From contig OZ024741.1 in NCBI GenBank assembly GCA_964016885.1, forward strand, positions 217,620,001 to 217,684,000: a stretch of DNA of 64,000 nt, given 5' to 3'. A model generated the notes under the pieces. The model did not search any database. It worked only from the letters and a program-made list of their open reading frames with translations, and was not told the DNA's origin. The DNA is from Eledone cirrhosa. Its lineage: Eukaryota. The translations under genes and the position numbers were made by a program. This document shows positions 6,224 through 41,127 of the stretch, piece after piece. Within the stretch, counting starts at the first letter, position 1. Every line of letters begins with the position of its first letter.

Positions 6224-6375
6224 GTTCGACCCTTTCTCACGAGGCTTATCCAACCCTTTACCCCAACCAAGAAGGGATGATGGTTAATACAAAGATGATA
6301 GCAAAGGAGATAGCAGAACGTCTTGCCACATTGAAACGAAACTCACTGACCCGAAGGCCTACGTTACATCGGAGG
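6224..6375 (+). CDS. TIR-SLOG gene, first visible exon (linker, basic RRxS/T-rich)
   Basis: Acceptor ttgttgttag at 6214-6223; donor gtaagc at 6376. Starts in phase 1, so it needs an upstream exon; ends in phase 0. Confidence 0.75.

Positions 6376-41127: not shown

Follow-up and report, generated by a model that had tools for sequence, protein, structure and literature searches.

A TIR-SLOG gene of the octopod Eledone cirrhosa belongs to a conserved invertebrate family with a ubiquitin-like pair and a SLOG pocket that appears decayed in cephalopods

Does a chain of small exons scattered over repeat-rich octopod DNA encode a protein that joins a TIR domain to a SLOG domain, and would such a protein be an animal form of Thoeris? 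We addressed this question in a window of 64,000 nucleotides from Eledone cirrhosa (contig OZ024741.1, positions 217,620,001 to 217,684,000 of the forward strand), in which a first-pass annotation, made from the letters alone, had proposed a hidden gene of 11 exons fusing the two domains. The motifs read from the letters are present at the positions given, and the proposed chain (6224-41127, + strand) held: AG acceptors precede all 11 exons, GT follows at the 10 internal donors, and the phases match, giving a stop-free frame of 496 amino acids and a TGA, with 34 and 49 stops in the remaining two frames. As a random control, we assembled 20,000 AG-started chains of equal exon lengths, none of which was stop-free (0/20,000). 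Four exons had been described as missing from the open reading frame track, and this is correct; exons 3, 5, 7 and 9 (window numbering) lie within open reading frames of fewer than 60 amino acids counted from a start codon. The product is identical at 431 of 496 positions to the O. bimaculoides protein XP_014774740.1 (LOC106872313; 840 amino acids, annotated as uncharacterised), and the single one-residue gap falls within exon 11, where no junction is affected. A protein search with window exon 8 yielded two proteins among eight candidates, namely this protein and its Argonauta orthologue; Pfam scans of exons 8 and 11 taken singly matched 0 families. The gene is real, then, although hardly hidden, its orthologues being annotated as uncharacterised TIR-domain proteins. 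To check the junctions, we compared contigs from sequencing runs; the run search listed four runs, all from a single study and of unrecorded kind, and no RNA library among them. A 1376-nt contig from run X4, whose library type is not on record and which was compared over only part of the exon chain, covers the full length of exons 8, 9 and 10 with zero differences, so that 2 of the 10 junctions are seen spliced; contigs from runs X1 and X2 showed genomic behaviour.

The first exon in the window starts in phase 1 and the chain lacks an ATG, which rules out the window as a complete gene. We performed a genome search with the orthologue as query and found 18 matches (a floor, as this was a stricter first look), every one at the present locus and 7 upstream of the window. 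The resulting AG/GT-bordered chain of 18 exons encodes 829 amino acids without a stop, 744 of them identical to the O. bimaculoides protein; the first coding exon, of ~10-25 residues by comparison with the orthologue, was not located. The window holds the C-terminal 60% of the gene, and the full protein is ~840 amino acids long. The 11-exon chain had been read as the full protein, and here the first-pass annotation fell short, since 7 upstream exons encode two ubiquitin-like (Ubl) domains and a further TIR domain (Table 1). No paralogue with an intact SLOG was found in the Eledone genome, where an intact-type SLOG query matched exon 9 alone (E 0.47). Bacterial contamination or recent transfer is ruled out by the 17 spliceosomal introns of the traced chain, as had been argued from the introns in the window. 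A bacterial origin is further opposed by the SLOG tree, in which groups largely track animal taxa, and by a pattern scan of 185,579 prokaryote genomes, in which 0 of 40 pattern hits were confirmed as close relatives.

Table 1. Coding exons of the Eledone cirrhosa gene and the protein parts they encode (positions are those of the window unless a contig is named)
Feature	Position	Strand	Remarks
Seven upstream exons: Ubl1, Ubl2, catalytic-type TIR1	G000:C2:217602572-217613623		Outside the window
First window exon (coding exon 8 of 18 or more): TIR1 lobe end and linker	6224..6375	+	Starts in phase 1
Exon: linker and first strand of TIR2	7430..7549	+	TIR2 from ~7502
Exon: TIR2	8032..8122	+	
Exon: TIR2 alphaC	9568..9680	+	Gln at catalytic Glu position (9678-9680); Thr in place of alphaC Trp (9666-9668)
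Exon: TIR2	10872..10973	+	
Exon: end of TIR2 and helix towards SLOG	14244..14363	+	TIR2 ends at ~14306
Exon: SLOG strand 1	15473..15564	+	Gly retained (15524-15526); family Ser/Gly is Lys (15527-15529)
Exon: SLOG strand-2 glycine loop	23346..23514	+	Family TGG replaced by SSG
Exon: SLOG, conserved Arg	24459..24600	+	Arg retained (24552-24554)
Exon: degenerate SLOG pocket motif	28439..28548	+	Second motif Gly replaced by Asp (28447-28449); Glu replaced by Ile (28459-28461); TGGAA loop replaced
Last coding exon: end of SLOG, disordered tail, TGA	40846..41127	+	SLOG ends at ~40953

Residue numbers from here on are those of the O. bimaculoides protein (AlphaFold model, mean pLDDT 82), and the structure models are those of the relatives P0001 and P0147 rather than of the window's own product. 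The domains run in the order Ubl-Ubl-TIR1-TIR2-SLOG over ~840 amino acids. Residues 14-180 form a pair of mutually homologous beta-grasp domains (Ubl1 against Ubl2, hhalign 98.8%), both of which had been omitted from the earlier account of the domains. The pair is modelled with pLDDT >90 and resembles di-ubiquitin, ISG15 and the Ubl pairs of USP7 (Foldseek E ~1e-6; VIA Z 6-7.8, the second model being that of P0147); scores for a Ubl subtype stay below 0.9 in the Atlas and below Z 8 in VIA. Across Ubl1 and Ubl2 (G000:C2:217602572-217609918, L003), Eledone is identical to O. bimaculoides at 164 of 164 positions and to Argonauta at 161 of 164, which suggests that the pair may have a fixed partner in octopods. 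Conservation of the Ubl pair thus exceeds that of the catalytic TIR within octopods, yet its identity to other phyla is only ~30-35%. Ubl, TIR, SLOG and disordered parts account for the whole 840-amino-acid model, and the protein is soluble, as the first-pass annotation had proposed.

To compare residues across the family, we aligned 129 proteins of at least 600 amino acids and removed 21 that were incomplete, leaving 108 rows that include close relatives and are therefore not independent. TIR1 (residues 226-340; Pfam TIR_2, E 2.9e-19), whose exons are present in the Eledone genome, finds its best match among solved structures in SARM1 (E 2.9e-6; Z 14.7, rmsd 2.2, 128 aligned), with WTNRE placed on SARM1 WVHKE, the Glu of which we take to be the SARM1 catalytic residue. 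The alphaC Glu is present in 107 of the 108 rows, and in the Eledone gene, and the Trp four residues earlier in 106. From sponge to echinoderm the SY, Trp and Glu signature is near-invariant, with 62-76% identity across phyla; judged by these residues, TIR1 carries what reads as an intact catalytic signature. Like SARM1/TIR-1, a small-molecule-gated animal TIR NADase, the family thus has a catalytic-type TIR, but the TIR identity is only ~25% and the two are not orthologues; SARM1 has the architecture ARM-SAM-SAM-TIR, in contrast to Ubl-Ubl-TIR-TIR-SLOG.

TIR2 (residues 418-556) matches the TIR of TRIF (3.6 A, 129 aligned) and ThsB (2.2 A, 116 aligned) with the same Z of 12.6, and it aligns with TIR1 by hhalign (91%, E 1.2e-7) with TCMQQ placed on WSNRE. 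Its catalytic position is occupied by Gln in 89 of 108 rows and by Glu in 6, and the alphaC Trp is found in 4. Eledone has the Gln and is missing the Trp, so the TIR inside the window is predicted to be a pseudo-enzyme and the catalytic-type TIR lies outside it. The first-pass assignment of a TIR to 7508-14305 was right as to the fold (7502-14306 by fold match and profile alignment), but this TIR has Gln where catalytic TIRs have Glu. Six proteins (P0038, P0243, P0251, P0045, P0252 and P0233) have Glu at the catalytic position of TIR2, three of them together with the Trp, and in one clade TIR2 may be active. A TIR2 that is non-catalytic by its residues would suit a non-enzymatic adaptor, in which the TIRs and the Ubl pair scaffold Toll-like or other signalling and SLOG is incidental. 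The TIRs of TRIF, TIRAP and MyD88 are among the fold matches, and some Glu-bearing TIRs, for example that of TLR2, were inactive according to the accessible part of a recent preprint (bioRxiv 10.64898/2026.04.20.719644). Nonetheless, we consider an adaptor highly improbable given the near-invariance of TIR1 across phyla and a SLOG pocket that is fully retained in half of the family.

The SLOG domain comprises residues 584-782, and its assignment to 15509-~40950 was borne out with slightly shifted borders (15497-40953) by structure matches and by the Pfam profiles of relatives. Its top fold match is 3bq9 (Z 16.6, 2.9 A, 192 aligned), which is presumably PpnN-like, followed by the Moco carrier protein (MCP; Z 14.9, 2.6 A, 155 aligned), a LOG (Z 14.3, 4.0 A, 183 aligned) and the SLOG of BcThsA with 3'cADPR (Z 13.5, 3.5 A, 171 aligned). 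In Pfam scans of 51 relatives (E <= 0.1), LDcluster4 was matched in 31 and STALD in 21, and the Octopus orthologue itself had no SLOG profile match. The PADLOC ThsA profile matched 2 of 9 proteins (E 4e-4), and a SLOG-only profile searched against PDB sequences gave no match below E 0.88. A likeness to the SLOG of TRPM channels had also been suggested, and this received no support; the profiles point to LDcluster4, STALD and MCP-like domains, and the TRPM-type SLOG family was found in 0 of the 51 members (16 families matched) and was absent among the best 50 fold matches. SLOG clades are described as enzymes or sensors in the part of the literature available to us (PMC9503650).

To determine the state of the pocket, we used two characterised proteins as references. 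ThsA contacts 3'cADPR through G289, S290, R371, K388, G399 and E403, according to the accessible text of bioRxiv 10.1101/2022.05.07.491051, and CgLOG has Ser19, a PGGxGTxxE motif and the catalytic pair Arg99/Glu122, according to that of PMC4979012. In the family consensus, strand 1 is followed by Gly-Ser/Gly, and TGG, Arg694, EGGPGAAHE and TGGAA are present. From this consensus we chose 14 pocket positions; their mapping on ThsA is inferred from range starts and spacing rather than from a residue alignment. The fold alignment starts with 586 on 282, which places Gly593 on ThsA G289, and Gly713-Glu717 has the spacing of ThsA G399-E403. By this inferred mapping, relatives with an intact pocket have 5 of the 6 ThsA residues, with Gly at the K388 position by spacing. 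All 14 positions are kept in 55 of the 108 rows, which include the sponge Oscarella, limpet, abalone, chiton, annelid, scorpion and sea urchin. Scores out of 14 are 6 in Octopus, 7 in Argonauta and cuttlefish, 6 in oysters, 4-5 in scallops and 7-8 in sacoglossans; the key Glu is missing from octopods, oysters and scallops alike. Eledone also scores 6, at the same six positions as Octopus, and at the ThsA positions G289, S290, R371, K388, G399 and E403 it has Gly, Lys, Arg, Ser, Asp and Ile, of which only the Gly and the Arg are kept. We found the TIR1 Glu in 28 of the 28 rows with a pocket score of 9 or less, so the catalytic signature is kept where the pocket is lost. SLOG identity to four distant references is 26-34% in cephalopods, oyster and scallop versus 54-57% in six molluscs with near-intact pockets, and TIR1 identity in the same comparison stays at 62-76%. 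Stem lengths for SLOG and TIR1, which come from different models and are rough, are 1.15 and 0.20 in cephalopods, 2.19 and 0.10 in scallops and 1.63 and 0.11 in oyster. On residue conservation, the SLOG pocket is intact in most lineages and appears decayed in cephalopods. The earlier term "ADPR-derivative sensor" therefore suits the family better than the Eledone copy, which is without ThsA ligand-binding and LOG catalytic residues.

A low pocket score might also arise if the octopod SLOG, rather than being dead, had been re-tuned to a different ligand or partner, the copy remaining a gated sensor-enzyme. Eledone and O. bimaculoides are identical at 171 of 199 SLOG positions (86%), more than in the first linker (28/38) or the tail (40/55), and with the Arg kept the domain may bind something else. 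Gly593, Gly624, Gly627, Arg694, Glu709 and Gly710 are all retained, the structure model is confident across the domain, and the long cephalopod stem (1.15) is followed by short octopod tips. However, the motif Gly has become Asp, its Glu Ile and the Ser Lys, and the GGAA loop is missing. Moreover, oysters, scallops and heterobranch snails have lost the same positions to different residues, a pattern more like relaxation than a single new specificity, and we regard re-tuning as distinctly unlikely.

The likeness to LOG phosphoribohydrolases and the Moco carrier protein (fold Z 14-15) raises a different possibility, in which TIR1 would make an ADPR-type signal and a LOG- or PpnN-like N-glycosidase SLOG would process or destroy it, a step that cephalopods, oysters and scallops would later have lost. 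The top SLOG fold matches include three LOG-type enzymes, EGGPGAAHE parallels the LOG motif PGGxGTxxE, and Arg694 and Glu717 of intact relatives are 23 residues apart, as are Arg99 and Glu122 of CgLOG; a pair at this spacing fits an enzyme. Yet the LOG motif is not matched exactly, being without its Pro and Thr, and the family differs from LOGs in its fusion to TIRs and in the loss of the Glu in octopods, the Eledone gene included. Arg and Glu occur in the ThsA pocket as well, where the ligand is just bound, as far as the available text of bioRxiv 10.1101/2022.05.07.491051 describes it. We consider this explanation unlikely.

The first-pass annotation had called the protein a Thoeris-like nucleotide-signalling module in one polypeptide. 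The fusion of TIR and SLOG with Thoeris-like parts was upheld across the family, in which a catalytic-type TIR accompanies a SLOG fold with Gly/Ser, Arg, Gly and Glu at ThsA ligand positions, as in type I Thoeris. In contrast to type I Thoeris, the present gene is a single spliced animal gene with an added Ubl pair and pseudo-TIR, its nearest family profile is LDcluster4 rather than STALD, and the Eledone pocket appears decayed. Pfam scans of 51 members revealed no effector family, SIR2 included, and with neither a SIR2 nor a membrane effector the protein is not a Thoeris member. Bacterial single-chain TIR-SLOG fusions also have both domains in one chain, but a Ubl pair or second TIR is not listed for them. 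ESM Atlas leads include TIR+LDcluster4 and TIR+LD_cluster2/3 fusions in bacteria; one TIR+LDcluster4 example is a mostly cyanobacterial cluster of 81 with ~392 amino acids (feature score 0.85, a lead only).

A relation to Thoeris could still be functional, with a Ubl-cued TIR1 making 3'cADPR or cADPR and the protein's own SLOG sensing that product so as to strengthen or damp the response. TIR1 matches PADLOC ThsB (E 3e-11) and NCBIfam ThcB4 (E 1e-15, far below the ThcB4 cut-off), the family pocket agrees by position with ThsA G289/S290/R371/G399/E403, and bacterial clusters with TIR and LDcluster4 in a single chain exist. Against such feedback, the family has no separate effector domain and, by spacing, has Gly at the K388 position. 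Canonical cADPR was the product of most active animal TIRs, as reported in the accessible portion of bioRxiv 10.64898/2026.04.20.719644, and this molecule failed to activate the two ThsA proteins tested in that of bioRxiv 10.1101/2022.05.07.491051. Feedback would also be impossible for the Eledone copy if its pocket is dead, and we think it quite improbable overall.

Our preferred explanation, held tentatively at a little below even confidence, is a single-copy, soluble Ubl-Ubl-TIR1-TIR2-SLOG protein dating from early animals that is most likely a regulated TIR NADase, with a gate that decayed in cephalopods. In the ancestral form, SLOG would bind an adenine nucleotide or ADPR derivative, and the ligand-bound domain would alter assembly, bringing TIR1 domains together to cleave NAD+ into ADPR or cADPR. 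TIR1 would be the sole catalytic output, as there is no separate effector. This logic would be that of a sensor and NADase as in ThsA or TIR-STING, with TIR replacing SIR2, and the sensor-to-enzyme direction is drawn by analogy. Oyster TIR-STING and bacterial TIR-SAVED, both among the TIR fold matches, likewise have a nucleotide-sensor domain fused to a TIR, whereas the candidate sensor in the present family is SLOG. TIR2, itself non-catalytic, would cap the assembly or act as a partner in it, and the Ubl pair would be a scaffold or an input through protein binding. In the octopod copy, SLOG would probably be ligand-blind and retained structurally, control having moved to the Ubl pair. As a caution on TIR1, an E. 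coli screen described in the accessible part of bioRxiv 10.64898/2026.04.20.719644 found activity in only 12 of 61 animal TIRs that have the Glu, so the catalytic Glu alone is insufficient. A more ambitious reading would be that invertebrates have kept, since before the sponge split, a SLOG dedicated to sensing a cyclic ADP-ribose isomer produced by a TIR, in a protein that also contains a catalytic TIR and a pseudo-TIR and is armed via the tandem Ubl module. This would be an animal counterpart of Thoeris second-messenger immunity, from which several mollusc lineages, cephalopods included, would have independently removed the nucleotide gate and kept the enzyme; we consider it doubtful.

In this family, a single conserved animal protein carries both a TIR of catalytic type and a SLOG whose pocket resembles that of ThsA. 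Many animal TIRs are reported to make cADPR, so that one has to ask which molecules read these signals in animals, and with this family the question becomes testable with two purified domains. Natural controls are at hand in the built-in Glu-to-Gln pseudo-TIR and in the lineages with decayed pockets (cephalopods, oysters and scallops). The Eledone copy is of the decayed type, and an orthologue from limpet, abalone, sea star or sponge would be the better bench subject. In our literature search, outside which most subscription journals lay, we found no paper on the family or its architecture, and this conserved, annotated invertebrate family is apparently uncharacterised. Hurieva et al. report cADPR from animal TIRs, including those of mollusc and echinoderm, and the legend of their Fig. 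3 names SLOG among the domains (bioRxiv 10.64898/2026.04.20.719644, accessible part). It is therefore probable that some eukaryotic TIR-SLOG protein has already been assayed, and this protein may or may not be of the present family. The architecture may already be listed in Burroughs et al. 2015, in Burroughs and Aravind 2020 or in the supplements of the 2026 preprint.

Next, we characterised the range of the family. Out of 1.84 billion representatives searched, with 8,000 candidates scored, 84 proteins reached E <= 1e-30. Named relatives come from molluscs, annelids, nemerteans, a priapulid, chelicerates, tardigrades, echinoderms, hemichordates and a sponge, and none from vertebrates, insects, nematodes or cnidarians is among the named entries of the 99 matches listed. 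In the ESM Atlas, the family forms a eukaryotic cluster of 244 members labelled hypothetical. A comparable spread is described for the ecTIR-DC families of invertebrates, which were reportedly defined by Gerdol et al. 2017 and of which the present family may or may not be one. Conserved invertebrate ecTIR-DC families are mentioned in the accessible text of PMC6321704 and PMC5549309, and the former describes ecTIR-DC as conserved cytosolic TIR proteins that are widespread in invertebrates, a likeness to the present family, and apparently absent from vertebrates.

Several relatives depart from the common gene form. Intronless full-length copies occur on metagenome contigs of low coding density (L005:9500-12046, L006:4052-6598, L007:4125-6911 and L008:1395-4190), and these contigs look eukaryotic. 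Tegillarca granosa has two family genes with consecutive locus tags (P0215 and P0246), which are probably a tandem duplicate. A TIR1-only clade of 18 proteins among P0083-P0112 has the catalytic Glu in 18 of 18 and long low-complexity flanks, and a SLOG-only clade (P0107, P0118, P0124, P0127 and P0270-P0275) stands beside a mite sequence in the SLOG tree. These proteins are either a two-gene split or exon fragments. Gene fission is not established, because the SLOG-only start point matches mid-gene sequence in locus L048 and these proteins may be last exons; a locus scan for the SLOG-only proteins confirmed 0 of 235 pattern hits.

Finally, we inspected the introns in the window. Long repeat arrays make up much of the intron sequence and are the source of long spurious open reading frames; simple or minisatellite arrays lie at 1-5530, 9820-10800, 11260-14100, 26900-28350, 31940-34100, 35300-36330, 38150-38950 and 39080-39850. 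Intron 7 contains a non-LTR retrotransposon (17001-19469, + strand) inside an AT microsatellite, with an open frame of 822 amino acids from 17001 that encodes RVT_1 (E 2.9e-32) and a PHD-like finger. By eye, 28980-29624 and ~50570-51235 look like copies of the 3' part of this retrotransposon.
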